Positions 1-59,940 of a DNA stretch of 64,000 nt are shown here, piece by piece. Positions within the stretch are counted from its first letter, which is position 1. The number at the start of each line of letters is the position of its first letter. The position numbers were made by a program, and so were the translations under genes. The notes under the pieces are model-generated. The model saw nothing but the letters and a program-made list of their open reading frames with translations, was not told where the DNA came from and did no database searches. Origin of the DNA: Cyanidioschyzon merolae (lineage: Eukaryota). The stretch lies in the NCBI GenBank assembly GCA_000091205.1, contig AP006492.2; one strand, 5' to 3'.

Positions 1-3000
1 GTTTCGTTGTGCAGAGGGTCACGAGTTCTGGGCGAACCCGAATAACATACGGCGAGGGATTCGTGGCCATGGAACGCAGCGCAAGCCGAGCTGGTGCCCG
101 CACTGCGCGCGTGAGCGCCGCCAAAAGTCTTGAGTCCAGCACGCTGTGCACAGTGCTCGAGAGCCTGCACACAACCAACGACATTCGTCGCTGGTTTGAT
201 GGACTCCGAGCATTTCAAAGCAGCAAGAGTGTCGTGCGGCAGCTCTAAGGGTCATCATGGCGTCGATTGCGCGCATGAAGGGTACGGAAGTTCGATTGTC
301 GAGGCCGGAACGCTAGCCTGGTGGCGGATGACACGGATCACGACGCAGCGCATCGTCGGCTTGAGACCGCCCGGAACGGCAGTTCCTCAGTCTGGGTACA
401 CCTGCATCATCAACACGCTTCGTTGACGCTGGAGAAGAGACTGATGGCGATTGTTGGTAACGTTGTGCGGTGGATGTGGCGCTCGCCCTACAGTTTAAAG
501 TTTTCGGGATTGCATTTTTTGTGCTTAAGGTTGTTTTTAGAAATCGCATCACTTTAGGACTCGAATACGCAACAGTGGGCCGGTACGCTAGATTTTGCGA
601 GCTAGAACTTTGGACACGAGCGCGTCGTAGGGACCCCGTATGGTCGTAAAGGTATGGCGTGCACCCCGTACGGAAACGGAAACGAGACACCGCGCGGTGT
701 GTTGTTATCACGATTGTCAGGTTCTATCATACGTTGTACATAAAGGTCAAATCATGGGACGTCATGGTCGTTCGCCATGTACCGAAAGGAACTGGTCTTA
801 GCGTACATGACCTGCGCTGCAGCCTCGCTGGATTGCTGAACCGCATCACGCCGGGGCATCGCTCCAGACAAGAATCCAATGTAATGAGGCGTACCCACTG
901 GTTTCATGATCCCAAGTGAGCAGCGTTTCAGCACAATGCCCTCACTGAATACGAAATGAATCCCTCAAGGGCTCGCCTGAAAGCAAGAAGCTGGACGCTC
1001 GGGAAGCTCGAACGATTTTCCGGAATTTTGATCGAGCATACGGCGTCTCGATATAGAAGGTGCTTCCGCGCATCGCTGCTGCTAGAATGATACCCAAGTT
1101 AGCCGCGCATCCGCGATTGCCTCGGCATCTGCTCTTCGATCAGCGTACCGTGCGCCATCTCGTGCGTCCGCCTCTGTTCCACGTTCGTCTGTTCTATCTG
1201 TTCCAGCGTGCACCTACGCTAGTGATTTGTTGATTTCGTCCGGATCGCATCGATGAGAATCGAGAACGATGGCGTCCTGGAAGCGTTGTACACTTACGTC
1301 AGTGGAGCATGCGTACAGCGTTTGAGCGCTGCAGCATGCCGAGCGCAATGGATACCCACAACTCAATGCGACATAGCGGCCATTTCCTCATCCAACTCTT
1401 TGAACAAGTTGCCGAATGCAAGTTTTTCGTCAAAGTACAAGTGAAACAATTGGCGGCCCAACACGTTTTCATATATTCCTGCGAAAAATCGTCGACGTGC
1501 GCCGTTTCAACGCCCATTTACGCGCTTGATCAAGCGTACGAAACATCCACCTCTGCTCTATACGGTGCTGAGGACGTCGATATCAAAATCCTGGCGTCGT
1601 CACGCGCCATGCTGATATGCTTCCTGGCATTCAGTGTGCCCGTCCCTCGATAAATTCGGAACCGCGCATACGTTGAGCAGGTTCATCTGCTTTCCAATCA
1701 AGTTTCTGGCGTTGTGCTCTTGGTTTCGAGGCACGACGATCTCCTTGGTGACCGTCGCTCCAGGAAACACGCTCATCACAAAGTGCTTCTCTTCATTGAC
1801 ATAATTCCGTTGAAATTGTGTCCCGTTGCTCCACGCAGGCCTGAGCTTCACTGCGTGCATATAGATCGGTGTTCCGTCGCTCTCCATCGTACTCATATAT
1901 TACGCTTCACGTACTCCTCGTAAACATGAAACATTGAACGAGCTCCGCCGGTGCACTCTGCCATGGTGTTTGAATGCTTCATACTTGCTCGCAGAAACGA
2001 TCTCCTTATCCGCTTCCACCATTGCGTGGGCGGATGGCATGCATGTGATCTTCATTCTCTAAATCCACTTTTTCCATGGTTTCAGACATAATCGGGGACG
2101 ATGGCGCTCGAGCTCGCCTCTTCGATATATGGGTCGAGTATTCCGCAGGTACTTTGCGTCACCTTCTCTGGAGCGGGCACGCCTATGGGCCGCAGCGCGA
2201 CTTTCCGCCCCGCCCTGCGTACGAGCAGGAGTTCCTTAGCTCGCTTCAGGGCTAGCACAGCGAAAGAATGGTTCGTAAACGAACATTGCCACGGATGCGA
2301 ACGACTCGTCTATTGATCTGTGAGCATCAAATTGGTGTTGGATAACAGAAAAGACGCCTTCGACTGGACTGAATCAGAAACAATAGACTGCACCGGAGTG
2401 CAGCGCAAAGTCGAACTATGCTGTGAAATATTGCACGGTTTTTGGGCGATAAAAAGTGACCTCGACATAGCGCATGACAGACGAGCATCGGACGGCGACG
2501 GCACGAAGCATGCATCGACAAAACGTCATATGATGAACGATCTTTTCTGTTGGACGCTTCATAGGCAAGCGCGCGACTGAGTCGGCTACGAGGCCCATGA
2601 TTTCGAAATGCTTGCTCGTCGCTTCTTCATGATGAGCAGATTTTCCCGCTTTGAGTACCCCGAGAAAGGTCTACGATTTCTCCCGAATGAAGTTTCATTG
2701 AGCAAGACGAACACCTGCCGCTCCTGTAATACGCGTTCACGTTTCAGTGCGAAATCAATCGGTTGTTGTTCGATGCACGACGCTCTCGAGCAGAAGCAAG
2801 CCTTATCGCGTTGTCCATCGGTTTCTTTTCTTCACCTTTCATAGCACCGGTAGAGACGCATCATATCGCGTGGCTCGTTTCGACTTCATTTCATCATAGA
2901 TTGTATGAAAAAGAAAGGATTGGCGAAGAGACATTCGCGCGGCAAGCGTTTGATAATTTCTGATTCAGTTGCACAACGTTCAGGGTATTGACTACCAGAA

Positions 3001-3443
3001 CGGTGGTTCATCCATCTGGTTCATGTGAAATAACTGACTTAAGCAATAAATCCCGTTTTTCGCGAGAGACCAGTGACACCATCGATTCCTTCCTCAACCA
3101 TTCCCCAATCTACAGGATACGTTTCTTCTGTTGAATTCCTGTAAGAAAAACAAACAAAAGCGGAAAAGCGTGCACTGATAAGAGCATTATGCAAGTCACT
3201 ACGCTTCCCCTAACGCTAGGCTCCGAACACGACCGCGACGGTGTATTCGCCTCGGTGGTCTTCGCTCTGACCCCAATCCATGGAAGCGAGCCGAATGCAT
3301 GTACATCGAGACGCAGCGCGTTCACGTGGTCAGCATATCCAGAGAAGCAAACCTGATGTGCGTAGACAGCTGAGGAGGCGTCGCTGCATCGGCTGCTGGG
3401 GCGCAGATTTTGCCCATTGTTGCAGCGCGGACAAGTGTTCCGA

Positions 3444-4035
3444 ATTCTCGAAAATTTACCTTCTAGGTGGAAGGTCTCGCGAGCCGGACGAGCCTGCCGG
3501 GCATACGCCCTGTGCGCCTCTGCAGCGACCGATGCTGTAGGGAGATCTCCGCTGCCCCTCGGCAACGTAATCAATCTGGGGCTCGCAGCGAGTATGCTGC
3601 GTTTCCGCGTCGCGCAGGTCGCAGAGGACTCCGAGCATATCGCTTCGCGCTATCGCAGGCAATACGTCTGTATGCGCATCTTGCAGGCTCCCTGAATGAC
3701 AATGAATCCCGAATCCATATCGTGCAGAACACGCCTCGAGCCGACGCCCTCTGTGGTATAGAAAAGCCGTCCTACGTCCGTGATGCATCCGTACCAAAGG
3801 TAAAGACGCCACTGCGGACTATCAGGGCAGGCATTAGGTGTCCGATAGAACGTAGGAAACGACCAGAATATCCGAGAAAAAGTATAGGTAATGTAACATG
3901 GAAGTAGGGCGTTTGAAGGATACTTCACCTCGCACTAAAAAAACACAAAAAAAAAGTAAGAAAAGAAAAATGCGCGTGATCGGAGAACGCTGGCACAAGT
4001 ACACCTTTTGTCCATGAAAAAAAAATCGGTGCTTC
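3444..4035 (+). repeat. Solo copy R1 of interspersed 'H+T' repeat family: head module (attctcgaaa..ggaaggtctcgcgagccggacgag) plus A-rich tail (cactaaaaaaacacaaaaaaaaag..atcggagaacgctgg..gtccatgaaaaaaaaa)
   Basis: Nucleotide similarity read directly to copies at 9033-9650, 13230-13700, 19176-20020, 41290-41660(rc), 51300-51730(rc); shared head 'ttctcgaaa.t.tacctt.taggtg.aaggtc.cgcgagccggacga' and shared tail 'atcggagaacgctggc..gttttgtccatgaaa'. No ORF. SINE-like (A-rich 3' end). Confidence 0.6.
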
Positions 4036-4435
4036 CAATTCTGGACACAGGTGGTGCTGGCGCAGCATCGCACAGCGCGCTCCATCAGCATGCCGCGGCA
4101 CACCGCGCGCCGTGGGCGCCACACACGCGAGCGTCTGCTCAGCGCGCTGCGCGGCACAGGAATCCAGATGCATGCGGTCTGTTGTTTTTTTTGATTGTTC
4201 GTTGCTGGTGGTCGCGTCTCGGCTGCAAGTTGCATATTCTTCGTGTCGGCGTGGTTGTGGGGTGCGTTCTTCCACTGGTACTAGAGGACAGGTTGTCAAT
4301 CTTGGTCGCTGACGACGAAAGCGCTCTTTAAGGGTTAGGCGCTGCGCTACTAACGCGGCACGCGTTTGACGGCAAGCTCTCTGCACCAGATAGGACGCTG
4401 CGGCTGCACCGACGCGTTCGCTTCGGCGTTCGTGT

Positions 4436-6151: not shown

Positions 6152-6398
6152 TCCATTGAGGTCCCTACGCTTTACTTAGAGCTTTTCGTTCGCTTTTAAG
6201 CCGAGACGGCAGGTTGCGCAACGTCATCGAGTTGTAGACGCGCACGAATAGCGAGTGCTTATTTCTCGACACGATGAAACTGGATTCGGAAAATAGATTC
6301 ATGAACTAAAGAGTGAACTGATTCCCGATGGAGGCCGAACGCCGTTCGAAAGTCGAACGACGGCAGTGCACCGTAGTGGCGAGAAGGCCGCCCTAGAC

Positions 6399-8674
6399 TT
6401 AACGACTCCAACTGGCGTACTGACGCTTCCTAGGCTTTCTGGACCGGCCACCCACTACTGATTCCAACTTCTTCTCATATAAATCAACTTTGAGAGGTTG
6501 TCCAATAAAGTTCTCTCGTGTCCGCTCTGGAGGTCTTTTCTCCAGCACCGCGCATCTCCTGATATTGATAGCGGCGTTGAAGTCTCGGTTAACGAACTCC
6601 ATACGCTTCTTGCCATCATTGGTTGTACATACTAATGCAATGAGTCCACGAACTTTTGCCTTCCGTTCCATTTGCTCTCCCGTCAGCGGTCCGTACTTTG
6701 CAATTTCCTCAGGACTCCTCTGGCACTTTTCCATCTCCAGGCTCTGGAGTGTGCACCCCAGTTCATGATGTGTATAAAATGTTCGAAACTCATGGATCGG
6801 TATTGTGACAAAACGCCGTGCACACTCCTTGTACGTTCTTGTCGTCGGAGCTGGCAGAGTTCCTTTTTGGGTGTTCCATCGCCCTGCTCCGTACGCTACT
6901 ACAAGCCTCTGTCTTTCATCCTTCTTCGAGGCGCTCAACTCATTGAAAAAATTCGCGAACGCCCGCTACCTCCCACCATATAGATTCGTACGCAGACGAG
7001 CCCACCGGGGCTCTGTATACTCCTCCCACAGCGCCTCCCAATGGGCAACAAGAACTTCCATGAAATTCCGAAAAGCTGTAAAGTCCGCTCCTCGGCTCGT
7101 CACCTCGCTCATAGCTTCAAGGTGATCCTTCATTCCTGCGTTCCACGTAACGATTTTCTTCCTTGCATTCATTATACCGGATTCTCGGTAGTATCTTGCT
7201 CTGGAGAACCTCCAAAGGCGCATGTCTTTCTGACGTAATTTGCCGTCAGTACCATATTCCGCACGCTTCGGTGCTGTGATGGTTATGATATTCGTGTTCC
7301 CAGGGTCTGCGCCGACGACAAAGTCGTTATCTTGGACTCTCTCCGTCGCAGGACCCGCCTCCTTCTTTTCTTCATGTTTCGCCGCGCCAACGACAAGGTC
7401 GTTATCCCGCACCTCCTGCATTGCAGGACCCGCCTTCTTCTCATCTTCATCCTTCGTGACGGGCGCAGCCAAAGGCGGACCAGCACGATCTTTCTACAAC
7501 CGCCGATAGTGTACACACAAGGCTACTCCATCGGTTTCGATCAACCCAGTGAACCACTTTTGCTCGCTCATTTTGAGACGTTTGAAATTGAAGATATTCT
7601 TCCAGTACGTTTCCCGGTTTTCATCGGAGAACTCCTCCCTGTTACCATTGAACTCCGGACTGATCCCCTTCATGATGCCGTAAAGGACTCTGGAGTCGGT
7701 ACTCACGAAATGTGACTTGATGTTGCACATTGGAACGACGTTGAAGCGCTTCCCCATTGGGACAGCCTTCCGTCTCTCCCACTCTTCATTTTTTTTCCCC
7801 ACTCAGCTTCATCTCTGCTTTGCGCTCGAGTTCTCGGTCCATGAACACGAAATACCGTACGACGAGGCGATCGTATCTTTCCTTATCTTTTTTCATGTCT
7901 GATATCTTGTCTGTTGGATTCGCCAACCCAGTACCGCACGATGCTCTTGAATAGCCGCACGGATTACAGAAGCTTCATTCGTGCTCTCGTTTGACGCCTT
8001 CTCGTCGACAAATTCGACCTCATCTTCACGCTTGCGATCTTTCACGATGTCGTTGATAATCGCCCATTTCCCATGGCGAGAGATGCCCTGGTACAGCGCA
8101 AACACGGCGCGTATCATGAAACGTTCGGGGTTCACTGTCAAATGGTTCTTCAGATTCGTGAAGTACTTCATTGCCCCGTCTGTGTAAATATCCCCGTCAC
8201 CCTTGTATCGAGTACCCTCGAGGCTGTAAAAGGGATGTTTTTCGTGGAGAGCATGCACTAGCTCATTTTGCCTCCTCGTTTCCCCTGTACCAAGCATCAG
8301 GTAACGAATAAAGTCTTATCGAAAAACTCGTCCGGAATCTCGACCGTTTCCGTGTGCGTCACGTCTCCGTACATCTCCCTCGCCAAATGAATCAATCCTG
8401 ACGACACCTCGACAACACGCTTGGAGTACGAGTCGACACGTTTTGCTGATACCCTCTCGCAACTTTTCCCTCTAGGGATCCTTGATATGTCCAAGACGAA
8501 AAGGTTTTCACCATAATATCGTCGTGCTGTCGTCTTTCCTGCAGCTTCTGACGTTGGACCTCTCCGTTTTGCCTCTTCGTCTTGTATTGTGGCTCCGGGC
8601 TTGGTACTTTTGTTCGTTTTTTTTCTGGCAGCCGGCGACACCTGTCTTCCAGGATCCTTCATTTCCATGTCCAT
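6399..8674 (-). pseudogene. Disrupted Fanzor/TnpB-like nuclease ORF (copy A): frameshift at ~8297, frame break 7802-7893, in-frame stop 7494-7496, ~69-bp tandem duplication at 7290-7450, frameshift 6938-6966
   Basis: Pieces align colinearly to copy B, but sit in different frames or are separated by stops. Start ATG 'MDMEMKD' at 8674; stop TAA at 6399-6401. Confidence 0.65.
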
Positions 8675-8900
8675 AGCTTTCCTTTGTTATTTTTTTGAAG
8701 AAGAGCGCACATGAAACGCGTTTGCTGTACACCGCGGGAAAGCACTTGAGTACACGCATTTGAGGGTTGAAACACGGTTGCACTGACAGACTATACGCTG
8801 CTAGGGCTTTAATGCAAATACAACTCGTACGTTATAGCAATACGCTCATATTAAGGATCGCGTTTCCCAGTTACGGCAAGATGCGCTTTGCGTCTCATGC
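6399..8900 (-). mobile_element. Fanzor/TnpB-like (IS605 OrfB family, RuvC nuclease) element, copy A, including conserved 5' noncoding region (8675-8900) and 3' region
   Basis: Conceptual minus-strand protein assembled from ORFs 8297-8674, 7893-8297, 7494-7802, 6966-7472, 6399-6938: RuvC-I '[13 protein letters not shown]' (Asp ~7306-7308), 'TSRGADF', 'RLVVAYGAGRW', Zn-finger region 'EFRTFYTHHELGC..LVC', RuvC-III 'VNRDFNAAINI' (6571-6597). ~50-60% aa identity to copy B at 41969-44094. Confidence 0.75.
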
Positions 8901-9032
8901 ATGCCAGATATGGAGATGCGCGTCTTGACTGCGCTCTAAAATAAAGAGCGGATAGGAACCTCTAAATACCAACTATATAACAATTTCTGGCCCCGCCTGC
9001 GATAAACGTTGAAAAAGGGAAAAGCTTACGGT

Positions 9033-9650
9033 ATTCTCGAAAGTATACCTTTTAGGTGCAAGGTCCCGCGAGCCGGACGATTCTGCCAGGGTTGTGCCTC
9101 ATGGTCGCCGCAGTGCTTCGTGCTGTAGTAAGATCTGAGCAGTTCGTCCGAAACGCAGTTGATTCTGGTACTCGTAGCGGGTATGCTGCACGTGGGCGTC
9201 GCTCTGGTCGCAGTGGACTCCTCGAATATCGTTTCGCGCTGCCACCGGCACTACGTCCGTCTCTACTGTTTCCACGCTCCCGGAATAATAATGTACTCCA
9301 GACCACGTGTCGGATGCATCATAATTCGATCCGACGCCCTCAGAAGCATGGAAAACCCGCCCTGACTTCGTGCTGCATCTGCCGCAGCGGTCTGACCGCA
9401 GACGCGGGTGCCCCAGACAGGCAAGACCCCCGATAGAACGTAAAAGAACGATCAGTATTTTCGAAAGCAAGTCTGAATGATAGACCTTGGTACACCAGCA
9501 TGACGAACGCTTTGTTTCGATTACCAGTACGCATCCCGCAATCTGGGATCCTTCGTCAATGGAACCGGTTTATCAAGAGTAGAGAAGATCACAAGCAGCG
9601 TGGCCGCCGCCTGCCTGACACAGCGGCTACACGGCCTACAGCATTGCTGT
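9033..9650 (+). repeat. Copy R2 of the H-module repeat (no A-rich tail), abutting the 5' end of Fanzor copy A in divergent orientation
   Basis: 'attctcgaaagtataccttttaggtgcaaggtcccgcgagccggacgat..gctgtagtaagatctgagcagttcgtccgaaacgcag' matches R1/R4/R5; downstream 'gcatcccgcaatctgggatcc' matches internal part of R4 (19690). Confidence 0.55.
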
Positions 9651-13229: not shown

Positions 13230-13700
13230 CGTCAATCAATCGCCGGCTTCGCGTACCGCGTTGCACCCGAGCGCTAGCATCTTGCGTGCGTTGGGGTGCG
13301 CGCGCCGGCACGCACCTCTCGATGCGTGCCGGCGCATTCGGGCGGGCGATGCTGCGAGTAACGCCTCTGCTGCTGCCGAGCATGCAACAGGCGATGCGTC
13401 CTCGAGCCGACGCCCTCTGTATGGTACGGCAACGCCGTTCTGTCTCCGTGCAGGGACCGCACCGGCGCTATAGGCGCTATTGCGGTCGCCGCTTTCGGCA
13501 GGCACTAGGCACACACGATAGGACGTATGAGATGACCAGAATATCCGAGATGAAGGATAGGTAATGTAACGTGGGAGTAGGGGATTCGGTGGATACTTGA
13601 CCGCGCACTGAAAAAATAACACAAAAAAGTAGGAATAGAAAAATACGCATTATCGGAGAACGCTGGCCTAAGTAAACGTTTTGTCAATGAAAGAAAAACT
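13230..13700 (+). repeat. Solo copy R3 of the H+T repeat family (5' part diverged or truncated)
   Basis: 13395-13700 aligns with R1 3735-4035 ('cctcgagccgacgccctctgt..agaatatccgagat..ggtaatgtaac..cactgaaaaaataacacaaaaaagtagg..atcggagaacgctggcc..gttttgtcaatgaaag'); weaker match back to ~13230. Confidence 0.5.
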
Positions 13701-14761
13701 GGCAACACGTATGATGCAGAATGACACGGTGGGCGTGCTTGCCCCGATGGTATCTCGCGTTTGGCGTCGAGCCCTGGCGTGCGTCTGTGCGTGCCACGCG
13801 CGTCACGTAAGCGATACATGATGCTGGTGTGTGCCTCTGCCCACGGGACGCTCCCGTGTCGAACGGCGGGCCGCCTTCACGAAGCGTCTGCGCGGAGCCA
13901 ACACCCAGGTGCCTCCAGAAGGGTACGCAGAGACCAGTTGACCTGAGGCAGCGCTTGCGCCAGTACGGACGCGTTTCTGGTGCATGACCGCAGCGCTACC
14001 CCTATCGGATACTTGTCGTTGGTGTTGGTCGGCACAGCGAGCCGTACGAGTGTGCGTTCCGGCGCCTGTCGCGCTCAAGAGAACCCTGTATGGATAGCGC
14101 CAAGCGTGCGATACCCGGTTCCGAGGCCAGCTTCCATGACGCCGTATAGCCGTCCCGCCTCTCCGTCAGGCAACAGCAGCAGCGCACCCGGCTGCACAAC
14201 AAGTATCTACGATAGGCTCTGCATTCGTGAGGTCGATGGATCGCTCGAACCCCTATATCCCAGATAATGCCTTTTCCATACGTCGTGCTGTACATCCATC
14301 TATGGACAAGAAGTGTACTCGATTCCGCACCTGCCTGCGGAAAGCGCCGCCAGCACCAGCAGCTCGCGCGCCCTTGTTATCATGGTGAAAGTTCAATGAA
14401 ACGTTCCACGGCATCCGCCAAGCAAAGTCGTTCTCAGCATGACGCAAGACGTGCACCAAGCTGCACCAGCAAAAATTACCGCTCATGCTTGCCTGTGGAC
14501 GTCTCATCTTGGTGTCGCGCTGGATCATGATACCGGTTACCTGGCGCGCGAGATGCGCCAGTGCCACACAGCGGCGCGCGTGTGGCCAGCACGACGCCCC
14601 GCTCCGCCTCCCTGCCCTGAACGTATCGTGTGTCGAGGGGCAGGCATCGCTGCGTACTAGCACTGGTACCAGGTGCGAGCAGTCCGGTGTGACTTCGCTT
14701 TCCAGGCGTACGGGTGTTGTGTCTGTGACGATACGCACGGTGGTTTGCAAAAAATCGCAAA

Positions 14762-18545: not shown

Positions 18546-19175
18546 ACAAGGAGTGCCCGATGTCGCTGCTCAAGGAACGTGTCGATGACGCCCTATGCAA
18601 ATACACGCGGGTACATTGGACACGATTTCGCGTGCGCCGCTCTTCAAACATACACTCTTGGGAAAAACCTTTTTCACGCAGGCGCCGCTGCTTGGTAACC
18701 TATCGCGCAGCAGTGATCCAGCGTGTCTCGACCTGACACCTTCATTCATGAACCCGCGCTTCATACCAAGCAGCAGAGCATGGAGCCAGAATCTCTGTTA
18801 TCCGACGCTGTCTGCATAGAGGAGTGCTCGCATGCAACCTGCTGGCGCATGTGGATACGCGTTCTTCACAGCTTTCTGCCCTTGGACTAGTCTACGGGCG
18901 TGCGCGCTCACTTTCCCCGAAAGTCGATAGAGCAATCACTCGACGGCACCAAGCGTCGTCATTCTTCGCGGGAAACGTCGTCTTCGCTTCGATGGTTGTC
19001 GACAACAGTCGCGCATCCAGGGGATACTGGTACCATGCATCAGTCGCATGCAATCAGTGAACACACTGAACGAGATACCAGAAACAAAACGAGAGAAACC
19101 AAATTCTAACTAGCGTCTAGATAAGAATGTCGTTCAAACTTCACGGTAAGCATTGACAGGGAGACGTTTTCCGCG

Positions 19176-20020
19176 TATTCGAGTGTTACGCTTCTGGGGG
19201 CAGGAGGCCCCGCGAACCGGACGAGTCTACCGGGCTTGCGCTCCGTGTGCCTCTGCATTGCCGGGCTCAGGAGCAAGACGCAAGGAACTCGTTCGCCACG
19301 CAGTTCATTCTGGGACTAGGAGCGGTTGGGCTGTCTCTGGGCGTCGACCTGGTCACGGAAGTCTCCAAGCATATCGCTCCACGCTGCCGCAAGCTGAAGA
19401 GCTGGCTGCGCAACTCGCACGCTCCCAGCAGGACGAAGAGGCCGGATTCCTTGTTCAATGAACCACGCCTCGAGCCGACACCCCCAGTGGTGTGGCAAAG
19501 CCGTTCTGACTGGGTGCTCCATTCGCACCGGCGGTACAGACGTTACGGTGGGTGCTCACTGGATGCGCTCAGTCCACGACAGATCGTATCGAGCGACCAG
19601 TCCATCCGAGAGCAAGGATCGGAGATGGAACTTGAAGGTACACTGAAGAATAATGGACGCTTTTCTTAATCTCAATATGCATCCCGCAGTCTAGGATCCA
19701 CGCTCCAAGTAAACGTTCTGGATGAACAAACGCAATCCACAAGGGTCGTCTGCGCCGCTGTGCCGCTCCGGGAACGCGGCAGCGATCCATGCAATCGCCC
19801 AGCTCGCTTGCAACGCATGGCGATCGTCCCGGAGGCGCGGCCGGAGCGGCAGCTCAAGGCAACGAAGGGCGAGGCGAGGCAGCGCGGTGCGGCAGGCGCC
19901 ACCGGCGGCGATCGCATCGATCACATGCACCGCGCACTGAAAAACCCCCCAAAAAGAAAGGCAAAATGCGCATCATCGGAGAACGCTGGCCTGAGTGAAC
20001 GTTTTGTCCATGAAAAAGAA
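19176..20020 (+). repeat. Solo copy R4 of the H+T repeat family (longest copy, ~845 bp, extra internal segment)
   Basis: Head 'ggaggccccgcgaaccggacgagtctaccgggc', body 'cacgcctcgagccgacaccc', tail 'cactgaaaaaccccccaaaaagaaaggcaaaatgcgcatcatcggagaacgctggcctgagtgaacgttttgtccatgaaaaag' match R1/R3. Confidence 0.6.
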
Positions 20021-20249
20021 AATCGATCGCATGCGCGCCAGCTGCGCGCACACGCACGTCGCTGCCGGCAGTTCAAAATCATTCGCCGCTGCGCAACGCA
20101 CAACGCGATCCTGGACAGTTGCCGCATTCCCAGGGCGCACGCGCGTGGCGCCCTTCGTGCATCCGACGGTTGCGGAGGTACTGGTGCTGGTACCCGCGAG
20201 CGTGGACATTGCTTTCCACCAAGTGCTGGGTTGGCGACAGGCCCCTTGG

Positions 20250-23187: not shown

Positions 23188-23794
23188 CACAAGGCGACGT
23201 CGTCGCTCGTCTTCGCGAAGGGCACCAGCATCAGGCGCCGTCGTCTCGGACGCACGCGTTGCCTTAGTTGCCGTCCCGCGAGAGACCGCCTCGCGTGCCG
23301 TAAACACCCACAGCGAGTCCAGCTGTCGCAGCGGCGGACGCTGACGCTGACCTGCAGCCGCCATGCCAGCTGCAGTGTCCGCGGATGCCGCAACCTCAAC
23401 CGCTCGGTGCCGGAGTTCCGAAACTGACCCCTCTCCGAGTCTTGTTTACGAGTCGTTCCAGGGCTCCCGCCAGTCGGTCGCTGCTGCGGAGCCTCGTCAA
23501 CGAGCGCTGGGTGCGCGGCCCCAGCGACTACGCACGAGACACCGCGAAACGCTGCACGCAACGAGTCAACCAGCTTCACTGCAGCCGCAAGCGCCTTGAG
23601 CCCTTGCTCACTGGTGATAAACCGGGCTTGACAAACGGAACACTCGTTGACGGGTACGCAACGCACACGCAGCAGCAGAGGCACACGCCTACCGCCGTTC
23701 CATCGCAGCGACACGGCGGCGTGCCGGGCGAGGCGGCGCCTTCGATCGACTGCCGCGCGATGCGTAGGCGCGCCGCCTCGCCCGGCACGCCGCT

Positions 23795-23995
23795 GAGAGT
23801 GTGTGTGCTTGTGTATCTGCGTCTGCGTCTGTGTGCTTGTGTATCTGTGTGTCTGTGTGCTTGTGTGTCTGTGTCTGTGTCTGTGAGTGTGTGTGCTTGT
23901 GTGTCTGTGTCTGCGTCTGTGTGCGTCTGCGTCTGTGTGTCTGTGTGCTTGTGTGTCTGTGTCTGTGTCTGTGTGTCTGTGTCGGGATACAGGAA
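23795..23995. repeat. Compound GT/CA-rich microsatellite (gtgtgtctgtgtgcttgtgt..)
   Basis: Read directly; intergenic between the cyclin start and the GAPDH 3' end. Produces spurious poly-HT/CV ORFs on both strands. Confidence 0.7.
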
Positions 23996-35799: not shown

Positions 35800-35980
35800 G
35801 TTGCATGCATGCGCTTGCACACGTGTCCATGCATGCGTGACCATGCATGCGTGTGCATTCAATGCATGATCGCTGTACGCGTGTCCATGCATGCATGCGC
35901 TTGCACACGTGTCCATGCATGCGTGTGCATTCGATGCATGATCGCTGTATGCGTGCTTGCGTGCGTGCGCGTGCACGAAG
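35800..35980. repeat. Tandem repeat (~70-80 bp unit x2-3) rich in palindromic CATGCATG / GCATGC motifs
   Basis: 'gcttgcacacgtgtccatgcatgcgtg..catgcatgcgtgtgcattc[a/g]atgcatgatcgctgta[c/t]gcgtg' repeated; read directly. Confidence 0.6.
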
Positions 35981-40817: not shown

Positions 40818-41289
40818 CGCACACGTCCTCTCAAGCGCTCTCGTTCGTCGAGGTACTCGGGCACTGCACGAGCGAATGTGTGCAGTAGTTGACTGCGCCA
40901 GGAACGCACTACGAAACGACTTGCTCAAGGCGGCAGTCCGTAACGTTACTGCACAGAACATGAGTAATAAGCGTCGTCCCGAGGGTACGAAGTCGTCTGC
41001 GGCAGTCGACGACTGGCGGCGACGCGGCGATTGCGGCGCTTCTGGTTGACGATTTCTCTTTGTCTTGACAAAACGTTTACGTTGACCACGGATCACAGAC
41101 TGCGGGATGGATATCGGTTGTCGACAAAGCATCTGTCATACTGCGCCCTACCTCCAAACTCCATTTCGCATATCTCCTTTCGGATATACTGGCTGTTTCG
41201 CACGTTCCATCGTGCGGCGGTTTCTGGCTTTGAGCACCCGCCGCCGCGCCCCAACCATTTACACGGATGCATCACGGAGGCAGACTGAC

Positions 41290-41660
41290 ATTGCCATACC
41301 GTATGAGGCATCGGCTCGAGGCGCCGTTCCTTCAACACAGACTCCACGTGCATAGTCATTCTGGGAGCCTGCAAGTTCCGCACCCAGACGTACTGTCTGC
41401 TGCAGCGCGAAGCGAAATACCAGGAGTCTACTGCTACCAGGGCGACGCCCAAACACAGCCTAACTGCCCCTAATCCCAGAATGATTTGCGTTTCGGACGA
41501 GCTGCTCAGACCTCACTACAGCACCAGCTACTGGGTAGCGTACGGAGCGCCTGACCCGCGGACTCGTCCGGCTCGCAGGACCTTCCGCCGAAAAAGTAAA
41601 CGTTCCGCAGTATGGAAAACTTTTCCTCCTTTTATCGTTCATCGTAGAGAGGGAATGAAA
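41290..41660 (-). repeat. Copy R5 of the H-module repeat (no tail), abutting the 5' end of Fanzor copy B in divergent orientation
   Basis: Reverse complement reads 'gaacgtttactttttcggcggaaggtcctgcgagccggacgagtccgcggg..gctgtagtgaggtctgagcagctcgtccgaaacgcaaatcattctgg..acgtctgggtgcggaacttgcaggctccc..cctcgagccgatgcc', matching R1/R2/R4. Confidence 0.55.
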
Positions 41661-41759
41661 TATATATTTGCTGGTAAATCGAGAGTCTCTGTACAATTTT
41701 TTCATATAGCGCGTTCCATACGCGCACCCGGGAGATCAGGCCGTCACATGACACGACGG

Positions 41760-44160
41760 GCATGACGCCGCTGAAGAGAAACGTAATATGGACTTGTTGA
41801 CCTGTTCCTCGAACGTATGCGTTGTAACGGTGTTGAAGTCAGAGCAAAATACAGTGTTTGATCTCAATACTATTTCAACCCTCAATTGGTTGTTCCCAAA
41901 AGCTTTTTCGCGGTTTACAGCACAAGCGTTCAAAGTGCGTTCGTTTTCGAGAATAAAAAAGGAAAGTTATGGACAAGAGAGTCGAGGCCTGCGGAGGCCA
42001 CGTGTCACCAGGTTCGACAAAACACTGGAAAACAGTGCGGGGCCCAGAGCGACAGGAGAAGGGGAAAGAGCAAAACTGGGAGCTCGCACATCAACTGCAA
42101 CTCGAAAGACGATACAATGACGAGAACGTAGAGAGAGCCTGTCTTCCAGGCCATCTCAGGGCTCCTTACAGAGAAAAGATGCAGGAGGGCATCAGAAACC
42201 GCGTCCTATCGTAATCCAGGAGTATTTGAAAAGCTTCTCTTTGATTGATGCATTTGGTGAGGGACCTTTACCATGACGTTACGGACATCAAAACAGTCGA
42301 GGTTCCGGAGGAGTTTTTCAGTGTGACCTTCATCCGCCAACTGATGCTTGGCCCAGAGCGAACCTCGACGATAGACGATCGAGTGCGAGCCCTACACCAA
42401 ACATATGCCTTCTACCGCTTCAACGGTTCTCGATACAAGGGTGACTTGGGCATTGACACCTACAGGGCGATGAAGTATCTCGAAGACTTGAAGAGCCACC
42501 TGATCGAAAACCTCGAAAGCTTCATGAACTGCTCCGTCTTCGCGCTCTACGATGGCCTCTCTGTCCGCGGGAGATGGGCGATCATCAATGGCATCACGAA
42601 CGATCACCAGGATGAAGCGGAGATAGAATGCTTCGGTGCGAAAACATCGTACAGGTGTACGTATGAGAATTCTGTGATCTGTGCAGCCATTCAGGAGCAC
42701 CTTGCGGTACCGGGGCTTGTCAACCCTGCAGAAAAGGTATCAGAGATGAAAAGAGATACGAAAAGATTCATCCCCTCATTCTGCGCTATTTCGTGTACCT
42801 GAACCGAGAGCTCGAACGCAAGGCGGAGATGCAGCTGGGTGAAAAACGAAATGGAGCGCCGGAAAAACGGAAGGCTGCGCTTCTGAAGAAGCGCTTTCAC
42901 GTCGTTCCGATACGCAACACCATGTTGCACTTCGTGACCATCGACTCCAGCGTCCTTTACGGCATGATGCAGGAGATCAGTCCGAAGTTCGACGTCAGCT
43001 CGGAGGAGTTCACGGGGATAGACTGGGAGACTCATTGGAAAAATGTCTTCGATTTCAAAGGTATCAGGAAGAGCAACACAGAAGCATTCGCAGGCAAGAT
43101 CGAAACCGATGGGGTATGCATATGTGTACACTCCAGGCGCTTGAGCAGGCATCGTCATATCCTGTCATCGTTTTCGCCCTGGACGAAGCATCAAAAGAGA
43201 GAGGCGATCCATATGCTGTACGAGCCGCAGAAGAGCGACTTTGTCGTCGGCGTGGACCCTGGAAAGAAGGATATCATGGCCGTCGCTGTGCCATAGTATG
43301 CAAAAGACGGTATCAATGCCAACTTACGCCAAATGGACATGCGTATGTTGAGGTTCTCGACGGCTAGATTCAACAGAGAGTCGGGGATGATAGGTGCCTT
43401 GAGGCAAACCGAGGCTTGGAACTCAAGATTGAAGGAGCACCTGGAAGCGGTCAGCAAAGTGACGAGCTGCGGAGCGGACTTTCGGACCTATCTGGAATTC
43501 ATGGAAACGCACGCTGCGCATGATGGGGACCTGTGGAAGGAGTACATAAAGCCCCGATGGGTTCGTCTGCCTATGGACCTGTACGGAGGGGAGCAGCGTG
43601 CATTCGCCAATTTCTTCAATGAGTTCTGCGCCCTCAAAGAAGGCAAGAGTCAAAGGCTCGTAATAGCGTACGGAGCAGGGAGCTCGTTGCCCGAAAACGG
43701 GAGCACACCGGCACCGTCGACACAAGCGTTCATCGAGTGCGCAAAGCGTTTTGTCACTGTCGTAATAGTCGAGTTCCGAACGACCTGCGTGCACCATGAG
43801 CTGGGCTGTACACTCCAGAAGGTCAGGATGGGGACACAGCCGCCGAGCTCTTCGGGGAAAGAAAATCACGGGGAGCGAACAGAGCGGCCGATGCCACAGA
43901 GGGCGCTAGTTCGAGGACGCCTTCTGTTGGACACTACAGTCAGCGCCATGAAACGCAGGGAGTTCGTGAACCGAGACTTCAACGCCGCCATGAACATCAG
44001 GCGATGTGCTCTGCTGAAGACGAGACCCCCGGAGCTTACGCGAGCGAACTTCGAGGGTAGCTTCCCGGGCTCGACGTGTGCTGGGGGAAACTGAATCCGA
44101 CAGCAGTCGACCGGTCAGAAAAGGATGGGAAGCGTCTGCGAGTGGGGAGATATATATTAA
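41760..44160 (+). mobile_element. Fanzor/TnpB-like (OrfB family, RuvC nuclease) element, copy B, with conserved 5' leader and 3' noncoding region
   Basis: ORFs 41969-42214 / 42245-42802 / 42793-43296 / 43333-44094 are colinear with copy A. RuvC-I 'DFVVGVDPGKKDIMAV' (43247-43293), 'TSCGADF', 'RLVIAYGAGSS' (43666-43680), 'EFRTTCVHHELGC', RuvC-III 'VNRDFNAAMNI' (43969-43995). Upstream 41810-41968 is ~80% nt-identical to 8675-8860(rc). Confidence 0.75.
41969..44094 (+). pseudogene. Fanzor/TnpB-like nuclease ORF (copy B), nearly intact: one frameshift near 42748-42795 and one in-frame TAG at 43297-43299
   Basis: '..IMAVAVP*YAKDGINANLRQMDMRMLRFSTARFNRESG' aligns to copy A '..[36 protein letters not shown]' across the TAG, so the stop replaces a sense codon. 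Start 'MDKRVEAC' ATG at 41969. Confidence 0.6.
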
Positions 44161-45099: not shown

Positions 45100-45812
45100 A
45101 TGGTTCATAAACTAACCGATACCAATATGCAATGCAGACCCACAAGCCTTCAGGGTTCTTGTTTCCTAGCGTGCAGCATGCGCACACCGTGCATACTTCA
45201 AGTTTTCGATTTTTCAGGCACTGGGAAAACAGTGAGTGCAGTGATTCGCGCCAGCGGACTGAGGTGGAAAAGTAGTCGACACCGTTTCTTGATGGCATTC
45301 GCACAAGCTCATTCCATAAGCTTACTGAACCTGGTCAAGCCCAGTAATCAGTTCCGCTCGAAAAACAAGTCATCCCCTATTTGGGGCCATCATCCCCAAG
45401 AGAAACCCGTCATCGTAGTGGGCGTTCACGAACGCGGAAACCGGGGTCGTCATCGAGGATGGCCCCAGGTACCCCCCAGACGACGTGTACTGAGCGTTGC
45501 AACAATCGTGTACGCAATGCAAAGTAGCCTTCGGACGAGCGTGTATGCTGGACGTACGGGAAGACCTGTCCAGTGTCAAGTGTGACCGCTGCGAAGCGGA
45601 CACCGACGCTGTATACGAATGAGCTGACTGTAGCGAGCGACGTGTAGGTGGCAACTCGCGCTTGTGCATGAAATGCGTCAACAGCGGCTGCGGGTGGCGA
45701 AACCGACACTTTCTACATTGCCATGAACGTCCATTGATTGCCAACAAGGGAGCTGGAGAGACAGATGAGACCGACATTGTTACAGCCGCGGATACGAGAC
45801 AGGAATGGAAGC
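45100..45812 (-). repeat. Left copy of an inverted repeat pair (~0.7 kb); core 45250-45812 is ~97% identical to the reverse complement of 59224-59790
   Basis: The reverse complement of 'acaatgtcggtctcatctgtctctccagctcccttgttggcaatcaatggacgttcatgg' (59264-59323) is 45721-45780 exactly; ~8 mismatches per 320 bp in the compared core. Outer ~150 bp more diverged. No long credible ORF. Confidence 0.75.
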
Positions 45813-45948
45813 AGTCGGAGAAAAAGCCTGTATAGGCTGCTACTCAGGACAATGGAGTAAATCACACTTTAGGGCGTATGCCCGATGTAGCTCTGTGAAC
45901 CCGTTCCGTTTCGTACTGACACGAGCGTGTCGCGGCCGCCTTTGCTTT

Positions 45949-50632: not shown

Positions 50633-51299
50633 GGTGCCCTGGTTGTATACTCAGATAAATAAATACTTGAACACCTGTACCAGCACGGCTTTCTTTGCTA
50701 TACCTTTCTTACCTCGCGAATATTCAACAAAAGGTTGTATCCCGTAGGTGGGAGAACGGTCGCGGGAACACTTCCTGCCGTCTGTGCTAGCTTGCCAAGA
50801 AAACGGTCTTTATTGTCCATGTCAGGTATTCTCTGGTCGGCAGGTAGATCAGCCGCTGTTCTCGTGGTCCTTTTGCTGCAAGTCGTACTCACCAGACAGA
50901 GCACATTTGGCTCTGTCTGCACTGCATTCCCGACATGAATGCGTTCCACTCCACATATATTATCTGCGAAATAGCATCTAAGAGACACAAGGTGTGCAAT
51001 CTCCGCACAGTTGAAACGGACGGTGATAAAGGGACGCACACGGACACAGGAAAAAACGCGCCTCTGTGCGAGAACGTTCCGCGCTGAGCTCCGTGCTGCC
51101 AGTTTCGCGGGGGCATGCGAACGCTTATCGTGCAGATGGCAGATGTTCGTCACACTCGATGAGACCTCGTTCGGGAGAAACGGGAGACATGTGTACGGGC
51201 ACCCAGAGCGGGAGCAACAAGTGTTCACAGAGAAGCGACACACGCGCATTCCGAGAGTATCTGCCCAGACGGCGACTGAGTCGTATGTTTTGCTTTGCG

Positions 51300-51730
51300 T
51301 CGGAAAACGGGTCGAAGTCTTGAACGCCTCATGCTTGTTCTTCGCAGCATTCCACGGCGTCTCGTTCTTACACGGCTCCGTGCGGCTCTGCGTCAACGTC
51401 GCTTTCCATCACCCTGAAGAGGTCAACGAGCACGCAGGTGACATTGGCGCTGCGCTGTTCCTCGTACCAGCCTATTCGCCCCGGTCGAGTTCAGTCGAAC
51501 GCATCTGCTCTGTTGGCGAACGCCATTTCCATGGGCACCAATGCGCAGGCGAGTCTTTTACATCCGCGACTCGGTTCGATGGCGAATCGTTCTTCGACAA
51601 TGCGTTGTCTGCTATTGGTGCACAGGAACTGCTGTGTTGCTGCTCGGCTCGTGGGCGGAAACGAGCGGAAACGAGCTCTCCGGTCGGTTGGGGCTCCCAG
51701 TTCGAGAAAGGTGAGGAATGGATCCTCAAG
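51300..51730 (-). repeat. Copy R6 of the H-module repeat (diverged), abutting the 5' end of the Fanzor copy C remnant in divergent orientation
   Basis: Reverse complement 'cacctttctcgaactgggagccccaaccgaccggagagctcg..gagcagcaacacagcagttcctg' parallels R2/R4 head 'taccttttaggtgcaaggtcccgcgagccggacga..gagcagttcgtccgaaacgcagttgattctgg'. Weaker than the other copies. Confidence 0.4.
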
Positions 51731-51849
51731 TAGAACGAGACGTATATATAGGAGGGAGCGAGTTTCTGTATCAACGCCTGTCCATCGCGTCTGTATTTCG
51801 AGAGAAAACCGGGCATGGAGTGTTGCCACCGCATCCATGCCACCTCGCA

Positions 51850-52750
51850 TAGTTAAGGGGCACAAGAAGAAGGAACTGGTATATATAAGCATCAACGTTG
51901 CGTTCGAACTACTTTGCAAAGCGCGGTGGCGGCGCTCGGACAAGGTTTCTCGATAACAGGAAAGAAATACCGGAAACGTTTATCCGGACGATGGAGACCG
52001 ACGGGATGCCAACCAGCATGCACCTTGCAGCACGTATGCCAGAGTCGAGCAGCCAGACTCATTTCCAACCGTTCAAGGTTGATGAACAAACAGAGACTTT
52101 GTGGTCGGGGTCGATCCGTGTCACTCGGCATCATAGCCGTCTCCGTACCCCTGCATCAAGAGGGCAGTGCTAAAGACCTACAAGGAGAGCAGATAAAGCA
52201 GCTCGAATTTTCCAGTGCTCGATATGATCGGCAGTCGGGCATGGTAGACGCCAGGCGGCATACCGTCCAGAGGAATGGTTGCTCGAGAGCCCATCTCGAC
52301 GCCCTGAGGACGGTGGCGCGCAGAGGGTAACGCTTTGTGCGCCTCATGCAGAGGGGGAGCTCATGAGCGTCAAACTGGCTCCAGCGGACGATCTTTGACA
52401 AGAACGCGTGGTGCCGAGCAGGGCACGCACATGGTGCTGGCTCCGCAGAGGCGAGAAGCTCGTGTTCGCAGACTTTGTGGTTGATGTGGGAAACGAAGTG
52501 ACCGCCCAGTCGGGTCGATTGACGGTAGCCTATAGCGCTGGACCTACTCCAGCTCACAAAGTCTGCAGTGATGCTCGCTCCCGTCGAGAGCTTGCTACAA
52601 GTTCAGGGATTGATTCTGCACGATTTCGACCGACGCATTCACACCGTCATGCACGCAGCACGATCTCGGGTACAGGCTGAAACTTGTCGAGAAGAGGCGA
52701 TTGAATTAGAGACCGTTGCACGAGATGGTGTGCGATACGCTGCTTGAACG
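51850..52750 (+). pseudogene. Degenerate remnant of a third Fanzor/TnpB-like copy (C)
   Basis: Frame-hopping matches to copies A/B: 'FLDNRKEIPETFIRTMETDG' (51930-51990) ~ 'FDFKGIRKSNTEAFAGKIETDG'; 'DFVVGVDP' at 52097-52120; 'LEFSSARYDRQSGMVDARRH' ~ 'LRFSTARFNRESGMIGALRQ'; 'RLTVAYSAGPTP' ~ 'RLVVAYGAGRW'; 'SARFRPTHSHRHARS' ~ 'HEFRTFYTHHELGC'. Confidence 0.55.
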
Positions 52751-54008
52751 CCCGACGGCGAGGCAATCGGAGATGCAGAGACTGCTGTGGTGTGCTTTCA
52801 CCAGCCACAATGTGCTCAGGTTCTTTCTGCATCGCGAGTTGATCGCCTCGATACACATCTGGCAATGTCTCGTGGTTCCGAAGCGCACAGCGGCTGTGTC
52901 GAGCGAACTTTCGGGAAAATCGTCTAGTTCTGCTTGTTGGCATTGCACTGACTGCCTGCAAGCTGTCGGTAAAAGCGCATCGGTGTTCAAGAACTGTCCG
53001 ACTGAATGCCCGCTCGGAGCATAGCGCTGGTACGGTATGGGTGAGCAATCGAGCGAGGCTGAAGCGGCCTGCTCATACAACGGGATCGGTTTCTCGGGGC
53101 AGAGGATGATTGGTAATGGTGTTCGAGTATTCGATCCTATTGGGCATAGGTTGTTGAGAAAATCCATGGGTCGCCCTAATGATCGACGGCAGTTCATGTG
53201 TCTACCTGAAGAAATATTCTGTTAACGCCAAATCTCAGGTGTTCGGTGAACGAAAACTGTTAGCTCTAGCGTGCCCTATAAAAAATGCAGTTTCGAAGTT
53301 TGGCTGAAAGGTTTTGATGCTCCCCCAATTTTCAGGCGTTTGGTGAACCAGAGCTTGTAACTCTTGACATACCCATAGAAAGCAGTGTCTACGGCAGCGT
53401 TATGAGGCAGCGCTTCGGGGACGCATGCGAACGTGCTGTCCCCAGTAGTTACGTAACAAAACGCTCCTGATCGACGTCTACGCGTCAGCACTCGTGCTGA
53501 CGCGACTACCGTCTGCGGCAAGTTTCGGACGACATGCGCATCCTGGATGCCAGCTTGCGAAATCGTTTATCTGCAAGACGTTTAGTTTTCTGAAAGCATC
53601 AGACCGTTTAGGAAGAAAGTGCTGTCACCGAAAGGCGGCGATCATCATGCCTTGCTTTTCGAGCGCGAAAGACTCGGCTCGTTTCGCTCGCCGGACGCGG
53701 GCGACCGTGAGAGGCTCCTCAAACGCATTAAAGCCGCATCACGAAACGTACGTGCGCTTTCGTGCAGGCTCCATGTCTTGGTATTCCAATCAATGCAGCA
53801 CCAACTACACCATCGCTGTCCTTTAAAGTGTAGGGTCGGGGTGAGCGTGACATTCAGCGCAGTATATTCGAATCCCCGACGGATCACCCAGCTTTGAATG
53901 GGGTATCCCGCTGGTGTCAGTTTTCCATAGGTCGCCCTCATCTAGACCCCTGCGAGCGCACGCAAGTAAACCTGCTCTACAAAGAACGTCTACATAGAGT
54001 CGTGAGCC

Positions 54009-59223: not shown

Positions 59224-59940
59224 CGACTGCTTCCATTCCTGTCTCGTATCCGCGGCTGTAACAATGTCGGTCTCATCTGTCTCTCCAGCTCCCTTGTTGG
59301 CAATCAATGGACGTTCATGGCAATGTAGAAAGTGTCGGTTTCGCCACTCGCAGCCGCTGTTGACGCATTTCATGCACAAGCGCGAGTTGCCACCTACACG
59401 TCGCTCGCTACAGTCAGCTCATTCGTATACAGCGTCGGTGTGCGCTTTGCAGCGGTCACACTTGACACTGGACAGGTCTTCCCTTACGTCCAGCATACAC
59501 GCTCGTCCGAAGGCTACTTTGCAGTGCGTACACGATTGTTGCAACGCTCAGTACACGTCGTCCGGGGGTACCTGGGGCCATCCTCGATGACGACCCCGGT
59601 TTCCGTGTTCGTGAACGCCCACTACGATGACGGGTTTCTCTTGGGGATGATGGCCCCAAATAGGGGATGACTTTTTTTTTCGAGCGGAACTGATTACTGG
59701 GCTTGACCAGGTTCAGTAAGCTTATGGAATGAGCTTGTGCGAATGCCATCAAGAAACGGTGTCGACTACTTTTCCACCTCAGTCCGCTGGCGCGAATCAC
59801 TGCACCCACGGGTGCCTTGAAACAGAAACATCGAAAACATGCAAGACGCGTGATGCGAGCATGCACTATGTGACAAAACAAAAATAATGCATTCTTTTGC
59901 GTATGAATTCGATGGTCGCGGCTGTTATTTCATGAACCTT
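59224..59940 (+). repeat. Right copy of the inverted repeat pair (see 45100-45812)
   Basis: ~97% identical to reverse complement of 45250-45812; 216 bp downstream of the FAN1 stop. Confidence 0.75.

Follow-up and report, generated by a model that had tools for sequence, protein, structure and literature searches.

When a 64,000-nt stretch of Cyanidioschyzon merolae DNA (contig AP006492.2 of assembly GCA_000091205.1, from here on referred to as the window) was read without database searches, a short repeat, here called H, appeared to lie directly upstream of three copies of Fanzor, an RNA-guided nuclease element, which raises the question whether H is a working part of the Fanzor element, as was proposed in that original prediction, or a mobile element of its own that became attached to it. 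The analysis presented here suggests that H is probably a ~0.7-kb non-autonomous and non-coding internal-deletion derivative of a C. merolae non-LTR (non-long terminal repeat) retrotransposon of the long interspersed nuclear element (LINE) type that forms an old composite with Fanzor. The observation made in the original prediction was partly confirmed and its interpretation found partial support.

The window is part of chromosome 10 of C. merolae 10D (locus tags CMJ...). Six of its long open reading frames (ORFs) are 100% identical to proteins of that chromosome (e.g. BAM80178), which identifies the genome as the one from which the repeat TE-N2_CMe, discussed below, was described. The window is gene-dense, almost without introns and has a GC content of 51–62%. 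Relatives outside the window were taken from hot-spring metagenomes and comprise 71 loci (L numbers below) that represent 47 distinct Fanzor copies; the counts of sequences upstream of Fanzor refer to ~30 of these related copies.

Searches with self-BLAST and nhmmer, complemented by word-7 BLAST in the region of the predicted third pair, showed H to be a dispersed repeat with five copies in the window, R1 to R5. Its length is 0.66–0.74 kb and not the ~0.4 kb first estimated, and the motif at its head gave three matches with at most three mismatches in the window against none expected. The copies are as follows (Fanzor copies A to D are listed further down):

~3400–4041, plus strand: H copy R1, divergent from Fanzor relic D and ~270 bp past the 5' end of D, with the tail GTCCATGAAAAAAAAATCG.
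~8942–9610, plus strand: H copy R2, TE-N2_CMe-like, with the head directly against Fanzor A at the 5' end of the latter and the A-rich tail on the far side.
9058–9081, plus strand: head motif of R2, corresponding to the final codons of LINE ORF2 (..YLLGARSREPDD..).
13399–13710, plus strand: H copy R3, only the 3' half (LINE 3' untranslated region, UTR, and A-rich tail), with no adjoining Fanzor.
19021–19763, plus strand: H copy R4, full length, with no adjoining Fanzor.
19970–20038: second (duplicated) tail fragment beyond R4.
41021–41703, minus strand: H copy R5, head-to-head with Fanzor B.

When translated, the head motif reads YLLGGRSREPDE in R1, YLLGARSREPDD in R2 and YFFGGRSCEPDE in R5, and these sequences align with the C-terminus (..CPCCGDEIPETLTY..QCPRWKQER..YLLGGRSSESDAHTG, aligned part ..YLLGGRSSGSDAHTG..) of an ORF of 255–353 aa that in several loci precedes the 3' half of H, the C-terminus of the ORF running into the H head motif. 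Among the homologues of this ORF are many copies of ~255 aa together with proteins that continue on the N-terminal side as a reverse transcriptase (RT; PF00078 in P0084 and P0088, with a FADD motif, ..LLFADDVVLLAP..); Pfam gave no match for the C-terminal ORF fragments and the link to the RT came from the homologue search. The order is displayed by contig L075, where RT ORFs are followed by H model positions 55–133, then 280–617 and then an A-rich tail, and ORFs running into H sequence were also found in L014 and L001. H has its head in common with the last part of ORF2, and its tail and 3' UTR in common with the RT-encoding element in L075, and is therefore classified as a LINE derivative. 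In its first ~110 nt H is similar to the start of the LINE; from these homologies it appears to retain the LINE 5' end, the final codons of ORF2, the 3' UTR and the A-rich tail.

The common tail of H reads GTC[C/A]ATGAAAAAAA, often followed by TCG, and ~12 distinct copies begin at model positions ~294–335 or later and finish at the tail, so that the 3' end common with an RT-encoding element, the A-rich tail and the 3'-only copies of a LINE derivative are all present. H forms an independent retroelement family, some members of which stand alone or lack their 5' part (R3 and R4 are the examples in the window), and a second LINE derivative, of 1.3 kb and with a 255-aa ORF, was found as well. Terminal inverted repeats (TIRs) were not seen on H. 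The original prediction had thought it improbable that H is an independent short interspersed nuclear element (SINE); H is no SINE in the strict sense, its head being homologous to the LINE 5' end and ORF2 end and not of the tRNA-, 7SL- or 5S-derived, Pol III type, yet H is independent, as a LINE-derived family.

H is almost certainly the Repbase repeat TE-N2_CMe, to which it was matched via the published description: a non-coding repeat of ~635 bp without TIRs that also occurs alone and forms the 5' end of a Fanzor1 element. Bao and Jurka (2013, Mobile DNA 4:12, Fig. 8D) found the 5' 635 bp of the element CMe-1A to be 95% identical to the whole of TE-N2_CMe, and gave ~150 copies for CMe-1A and ~70 for TE-N2_CMe, both without TIRs (PMC3627910). 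The class of either element was left open and one arrangement was described (PMC3627910).

Other candidates for H were tried and rejected. A protein gene, for instance a decayed IS607-type serine recombinase, is contradicted by stops in all six frames and by the lack of a codon-position bias in the conservation of H. Nor does H fit a 5' stretch conserved within a family of host genes, as the genes that follow the H copies (bZIP, Obg GTPase, ABC transporter, HisRS and others) are not related to one another. For a known RNA family or a tRNA-derived SINE there was no match in the window with Rfam or ARAGORN, and for a deletion derivative of Fanzor resembling a miniature inverted-repeat transposable element there is no homology to the Fanzor core; the sole likeness between H and Fanzor is a 21-nt stretch similar to the H tail at the 3' end of copy L058.

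The Fanzor copies to which H is joined, and those to which it is not, are the following:

6338–8941, minus strand: Fanzor A, a pseudogene of the CMe-1A family with in-frame stops and one frameshift.
8918–8934: 5' terminal hairpin of Fanzor A.
6399–8674, minus strand: ORF remnants of Fanzor A; the first ATG, at 8674, lies ~270 nt inside the element, with a leader between hairpin and ATG.
6338–6362: terminal hairpin at the 3' end of Fanzor A, the last element of a structured and conserved non-coding region.
41704–44139, plus strand: Fanzor B, a pseudogene of a diverged CMe-1A subfamily.
41709–41725: 5' terminal hairpin of Fanzor B.
815–3136, minus strand: Fanzor relic D, of a second, older family (25–28% aa identity to P0001, E 8e-17), absent from the original prediction.
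50722–53066, plus strand: Fanzor relic C, of the same old family as D, with no H upstream; the original prediction had recognised it only in part.

The protein of Fanzor A is 62% identical to P0001, an intact relative of 752 aa, and B is more diverged. Assignment to the Fanzor1 family follows the published one (PMC3627910), and the ORF fragments carry RuvC motifs of the Fanzor1 type, VGADPG, IHEFRT and VNRDFNAAINI (GxDPG, ExxT and NRDxNAAxNI), while Pfam returned merely a sub-threshold match to a TNB domain. Relics C and D can be aligned collinearly along 2.37 kb, with an identity of 57% (50722–53066 against 3136–815), and at the protein level their family is 25–37% identical to the CMe-1A type. 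Just upstream of the RuvC-I motif many loci have a tandem duplication of ~75–230 nt in variable copy number (7309–7456 in Fanzor A, model positions 1490–1720), which encodes a repeat and at which most copies are split by nhmmer into two overlapping matches.

Two of the three predicted pairs were recovered, A with R2 and B with R5, and in both H lies directly at the Fanzor 5' end (A on the minus, B on the plus strand) in divergent orientation. The third was to consist of Fanzor C and a copy 'R6' on the minus strand ending at ~51730. Neither nhmmer nor word-7 BLAST detected H in 51000–51900, and 'R6' is the N-terminal half of relic C itself, whose neighbour upstream is a host gene ending at 50632. 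The real third pair is relic D with R1.

Homology between the A and B loci forms one collinear alignment that runs from Fanzor into H (7497–9257 against 43143–41387, 69% identity), and in both loci H abuts the 5' terminal hairpin of Fanzor with essentially no spacer. The head of H was defined from copies without Fanzor at that end (R4 and L011), and it is this head that abuts the hairpin directly. On the other side, the boundary is common to all Fanzor copies; it precedes the start codon of P0001 by ~330 nt and coincides with the terminal hairpin, of which there are two compensatory forms, GCGCTC-GGT-GAGCGC and GCGCG-GTCGATA-CGCGC. The head does face the Fanzor 5' end, as had been predicted, but the gap of 100–150 bp between them is made up of Fanzor leader and H head. 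The terminal hairpins at the 5' and 3' ends of Fanzor resemble the ends of the IS200/IS605 type more than TIRs.

Upstream of this boundary the Fanzor copies fall into discrete classes, with at least five types of 5' module:

H, minus orientation, head-to-head: 8 copies including L071, which corresponds to locus A of the window; B in the window is arranged likewise.
H or the LINE 3' part, plus orientation, tail-to-head: 6 copies; in L075 a near-full LINE is placed in this way.
LINE 5' region, minus orientation: L004, L009 and L047, and also L037, L048 and L075, joined at Fanzor model position 99.
1.3-kb LINE derivative, minus orientation: L001, the intact 752-aa copy.
Module 'X2': 9 copies.
Unique flanks: 2 copies.

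H is consequently beside the Fanzor 5' end in 14 of the ~30 copies, in 8 of them divergent and in 6 co-directional, and 16 copies are without it. The claims that H is always divergent, and that it is an integral module of the element, did not survive these counts and the existence of solo copies of H. LINE-family sequence in general was found at the 5' end of 19 of the ~30 copies, some of these 5' ends being truncated, and was never seen abutting a Fanzor 3' end, the closest cases being ~45–290 bp off. Past H the outer flanks are unrelated from copy to copy. In the metagenomic counterpart of locus A, L071, the two H copies group with R1 and R2 (96% identity threshold), and at the co-directional junction the H tail and the start of Fanzor overlap by 4 nt, ATCG.

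Two further arrangements concern the 5' modules. X2 holds a 68-nt fragment of the Fanzor 3' terminus (L005:923–990, L036:1234–1302) ~750 nt upstream of a full copy, and copies of X2 differ in 5' extent (about -55, -600 and -1000). In two 'sandwiches' (L056:1454–7087 and L075:2–4678) a Fanzor on the minus strand and another on the plus strand enclose H (L056) or a near-full LINE (L075) in plus orientation, so that both Fanzor 3' ends face outwards, formally like a composite transposon.

The adjacency of H and Fanzor is non-random, recurrent and, to judge by the junctions, heritable. That it does not reflect three chance landings, as had been argued from the window, is borne out by the same end-to-end junction in A, B and at least six more copies with unique outer flanks. 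In A and B the 5' head of H meets the terminal hairpin of a CMe-1A Fanzor1 head-to-head, and the simplest reading is that this composite with H in minus orientation is an old arrangement which was copied as a unit into new sites within a star-like family. Such copying would account for a junction that is common to A, B and at least six relatives although their outer flanks are unrelated. Inheritance as a unit is also favoured by a variant of the Fanzor hairpin that is specific to the 5' class, by a divergence of H (~0.36) similar to that of the non-coding parts of the linked Fanzors (0.30–0.34), and by the inclusion of H in the published consensus. The prediction that H and Fanzor are equally diverged holds roughly for the A–B comparison (H 62%, Fanzor 68% identity) but not in general: identity between H copies is 58–68% against 68–82% for Fanzor bodies, and H is the most diverged part of the composite. 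The Fanzor copies linked to H in minus orientation are on average the most diverged ones.

To the suggestion that H could be a divergently transcribed non-coding RNA the Fanzor 3' end gives a different answer. Past the Fanzor stop codon lies a conserved non-coding stretch of ~125 nt that ends sharply after a terminal hairpin (GGCGTCGTTCGACTTTCGAACGGCGTT; 6338–6362 in A). Single sequences of this region fold into a long-range stem, AGUAGUGG...CCACUACU, around two hairpins, followed by the terminal hairpin, with folding energies of -43 to -58 kcal/mol. In 33 copies 78.8% of cells were paired against 39–57% in slid controls, with frequent alternation of G-C and G-U, the count using the structure mapped from one sequence. 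RNAalifold returned a trivial consensus for the region, and in pseudogene A it was not significantly more stable than shuffled sequences (z -0.81). Published Fanzor1 omega (guide) RNAs are 3' transcripts that run 14–15 nt into non-conserved flank, and the omega RNAs of TnpB and Fanzor overlap the end of the nuclease ORF and the right end of the element (PMC13565253). Because its position matches that of these published RNAs, we infer that the conserved 3' region is the Fanzor omega RNA. H, in comparison, is found at the 5' end, is unrelated in sequence, shows no structural signal, folding no better than shuffles on either strand (z -0.69 sense, +1.55 antisense), and is missing from 16 of the ~30 copies, whereas the base-paired region of the C. 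merolae-type copies ends at the element boundary. H is thus not the guide RNA but an optional sequence in either orientation, which probably does nothing specific for Fanzor.

Two variations of the Fanzor 3' end were also seen. After model position 2607 an alternative 3' module (..GCGTCTGC|GA.TGGATATTAATTTACCC..GTGAAACGTTTT..) supplants the last ~60 nt of the usual region in Fanzor B (44100–44139 onward) and in fragments of L011, L031, L057 and L073. A short repeat consists of the last ~350–400 nt of Fanzor, i.e. C-terminal codons and structured 3' region, at L011:829–1171 (minus), L031:11348–11700 (minus) and L058:3517–3924 (plus); its copies have a common 5' flank (..ATAAACAAGT..GTTCATTTT..AAAA|ATGAG) and it may be a nuclease-less derivative family that carries only the guide RNA.

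While the identity of H, the anatomy of the junctions, the frequencies and the 3' place of the conserved structured region are shown by the sequences, how the junctions came about is hinted at by truncated copies. When matched to the Fanzor core profile, at least 10 distinct Fanzor copies were 5'-truncated with an exact 3' end, and none was 3'-truncated inside a contig. LINE-family sequence sits at truncated 5' ends in L068, L023, L055 and L037; LINE position 3088 is joined to Fanzor 1413 in L068, the H head to Fanzor 1758 in L023 and H position 92 to Fanzor 461 in L055. Truncated Fanzors also occur as head-to-head pairs, joined at positions 1369/1349 in L043 (3810–6304) and at 1598/1466 in L057 (13–2022), L044 (2–1683) and L061 (1–1694), with the 3' ends facing outwards. 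In L1 biology, truncation at the 5' end, 5' inversion and chimeras at RNA termini are the classic marks that target-primed reverse transcription leaves when templates are switched and twin priming occurs. Taken together, the 5' truncations, inversions and RNA-terminus chimeras suggest that copying of CMe-1A begins at the 3' end, and the LINE machinery may be what carries it out.

The junctions could have arisen while Fanzor was copied in the 3' to 5' direction and its nascent 5' end was joined to LINE-family RNA or cDNA, an explanation that we hold to be possible, if somewhat short of probable. Template switching would yield the co-directional junctions, and priming from both sides of a break would yield the head-to-head ones. 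A broader proposal, more tentative still, is that CMe-1A, which has 150–250 copies, makes up ~5% of the genome and lacks a transposase, propagates as such by copying from the 3' end; in its most provocative version the LINE machinery reverse-transcribes Fanzor transcripts, and the composites would be template-switch products when co-directional and double-priming products when head-to-head. In a variant at the DNA level, break-induced copying would be primed at the guide-matching 3' flank, while the opposite side of the break would take up LINE cDNA. Some of the pattern could be due to such break-induced DNA copying from the 3' flank or to deletions inside composites.

Several results weigh against copying of the composite as a unit and against copying from the 3' end. 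Neither a poly(A) nor a LINE-type tail follows the Fanzor 3' end, which speaks against simple LINE-mediated retroposition. The prediction that H and Fanzor were inherited together is favoured by the recurrent junctions with unique outer flanks, but a search for target-site duplications (TSDs) around copy A with its H gave nothing convincing, in a family whose copies are old and only 60–80% identical. Fanzor bodies do not cluster by 5' module (distance 0.235 within the class with H in minus orientation, 0.181 overall), H distances are uncorrelated with Fanzor distances (rho 0.007, Mantel-type), and neighbour-joining trees, the Mantel-type correlation and permutation tests for co-inheritance were uninformative or negative. 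With no phylogenetic support, the case for unit inheritance therefore rests on the identity of the junctions; the star-like tree of the family may simply be uninformative on the point. In the 3' region variation is low, and for this reason covariation among the 33 copies did not exceed the level of shuffles. Finally, the copies beyond the window come from metagenomes of related Cyanidioschyzon populations and do not amount to a census of the 10D genome.

Against this background, a functional module that Fanzor needs for activity or mobility, be it a divergent non-coding RNA such as a guide or omega RNA, a promoter or a left end, is very improbable, even though H abuts the 5' end divergently in A, B and 8 of the ~30 related copies, the CMe-1A consensus contains H (PMC3627910) and an antisense promoter at the LINE 5' end could, by conjecture, face Fanzor. 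Besides the 16 copies without H there are the 6 in which it is reversed with its tail facing Fanzor, and the intact 752-aa copy in L001 has another LINE fragment where H would be. The homology of H to LINE ORF2 and 3' UTR, its folding at the level of shuffles with no Rfam family or tRNA, its standing as the most diverged part of the composite and the place of the conserved structured non-coding region at the opposite end of Fanzor all point the same way. Even less credit can be given to chance clustering, by which transposable elements would pile up in the few intergenic 'safe havens' of a compact genome. Five H and four Fanzor copies in 64 kb are indeed far above the average expected from ~70 H and 150–253 Fanzor copies in 16.5 Mb, and the D–R1 pair is loose, with its gap of ~270 bp; the explanation is nevertheless largely refuted by the precision of the junctions, which are exact within a few nt, recurrent (8 + 6 copies) and confined to the Fanzor 5' end, and by the collinear A–B homology across the junction.

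A different possibility is site-specific retrotransposition, in which the LINE family and H would recognise the Fanzor 5' hairpin as their target and would have inserted repeatedly and independently beside existing copies. The 0.7-kb H, the 1.3-kb derivative and a near-full LINE all stop at the same Fanzor boundary in both orientations, a palindromic hairpin as target could permit either orientation, the 4-nt overlap ATCG between H tail and Fanzor start could reflect priming on the target, and Fanzor bodies that are not clustered by module fit repeated insertion. LINE-family sequence also abuts, however, hairpin-less Fanzors truncated at 99, 461, 1413 and 1758, and many H and LINE copies are far from any Fanzor (R3 and R4 among them), which makes site-specific insertion unlikely as well. 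The origin of H as a LINE derivative that forms an old composite with Fanzor is therefore preferred to all three.

The pairing of H and Fanzor is already known, having been published in 2013, and the adjacency alone adds little; new here are the classification of H as LINE, the statistics of junctions and truncations and the frequencies of the 5' modules. The LINE classification was not found in PMC1955436, PMC3627910 or PMC13565253. For C. merolae, Nozaki et al. (2007) had described 26 non-LTR retrotransposons, together with a 3.2-kb repeat that contains a WSV486-like ORF and is present in 253 copies (PMC1955436). The system described here agrees with CMe-1A and TE-N2_CMe in the genome, in an element of ~3 kb without transposase or TIRs whose copies are ~80% identical to the consensus, and in a ~0.64-kb repeat that forms its 5' end and also occurs alone in tens of copies. 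It differs in that H was traced to an RT-encoding LINE and the junction to the Fanzor terminal hairpin, and in that the published arrangement is one of at least five types of 5' module, is found in both orientations and is missing in about half of the copies.

Non-autonomous LINE derivatives such as HAL1 exist, as do SINEs that share the 3' tail of a partner LINE. H is like these in its LINE 3' UTR and tail, its A-rich end and its many 3'-only copies, and unlike them in having no tRNA-, 7SL- or 5S-derived head, no intact ORF and no convincing TSD. In Xenopus, Tx1L is a site-specific LINE within the DNA element Tx1D; here too a LINE family recurs at one position of another mobile element and the pair looks composite, but LINE sequence also borders truncated Fanzor ends without the putative target. 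L1-type chimeric retrocopies (e.g. U6-L1) and twin-priming inversions were reportedly described by Buzdin et al. in 2002 and Ostertag and Kazazian in 2001. The Fanzor junctions resemble them in lying at RNA termini (LINE tail or head to Fanzor 5' end), in 5' truncation with an intact 3' end, in head-to-head inversions and in 4-nt microhomology at one junction type. They differ from them in a Fanzor 3' end without poly(A) or LINE tail and in the lack of visible TSDs, and reverse transcription of Fanzor RNA is at most suggested by the sequence pattern.

These results bear on how Fanzor families without a transposase reach hundreds of copies. In about two-thirds of the copies the 5' end of Fanzor is fused to a LINE-family terminus, a tighter relation than mere proximity, and the junction and truncation statistics make a mechanistic link between LINE and Fanzor testable. 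If the pattern were true genome-wide, C. merolae, with its complete genome of 16.5 Mb and its amenability to genetic manipulation, would offer a tractable test of a nuclease element hitch-hiking on a retrotransposon, and copying from the 3' end, in either version, would if true tie an RNA-guided nuclease element to a retrotransposon mechanistically for the first time.

Apart from H and Fanzor, the window contains an inverted repeat of ~0.64 kb with arms at 45176–45817 and 59224–59864 that are 95–99% identical and have several host genes in the ~13.4 kb between them; it looks like a recent inverted duplication. Intergenic repeats at 23785–23992 and 35802–35976 consist of a microsatellite array of the type (CTGTGTGT)n and a 72-bp tandem repeat rich in TGCATGCA.

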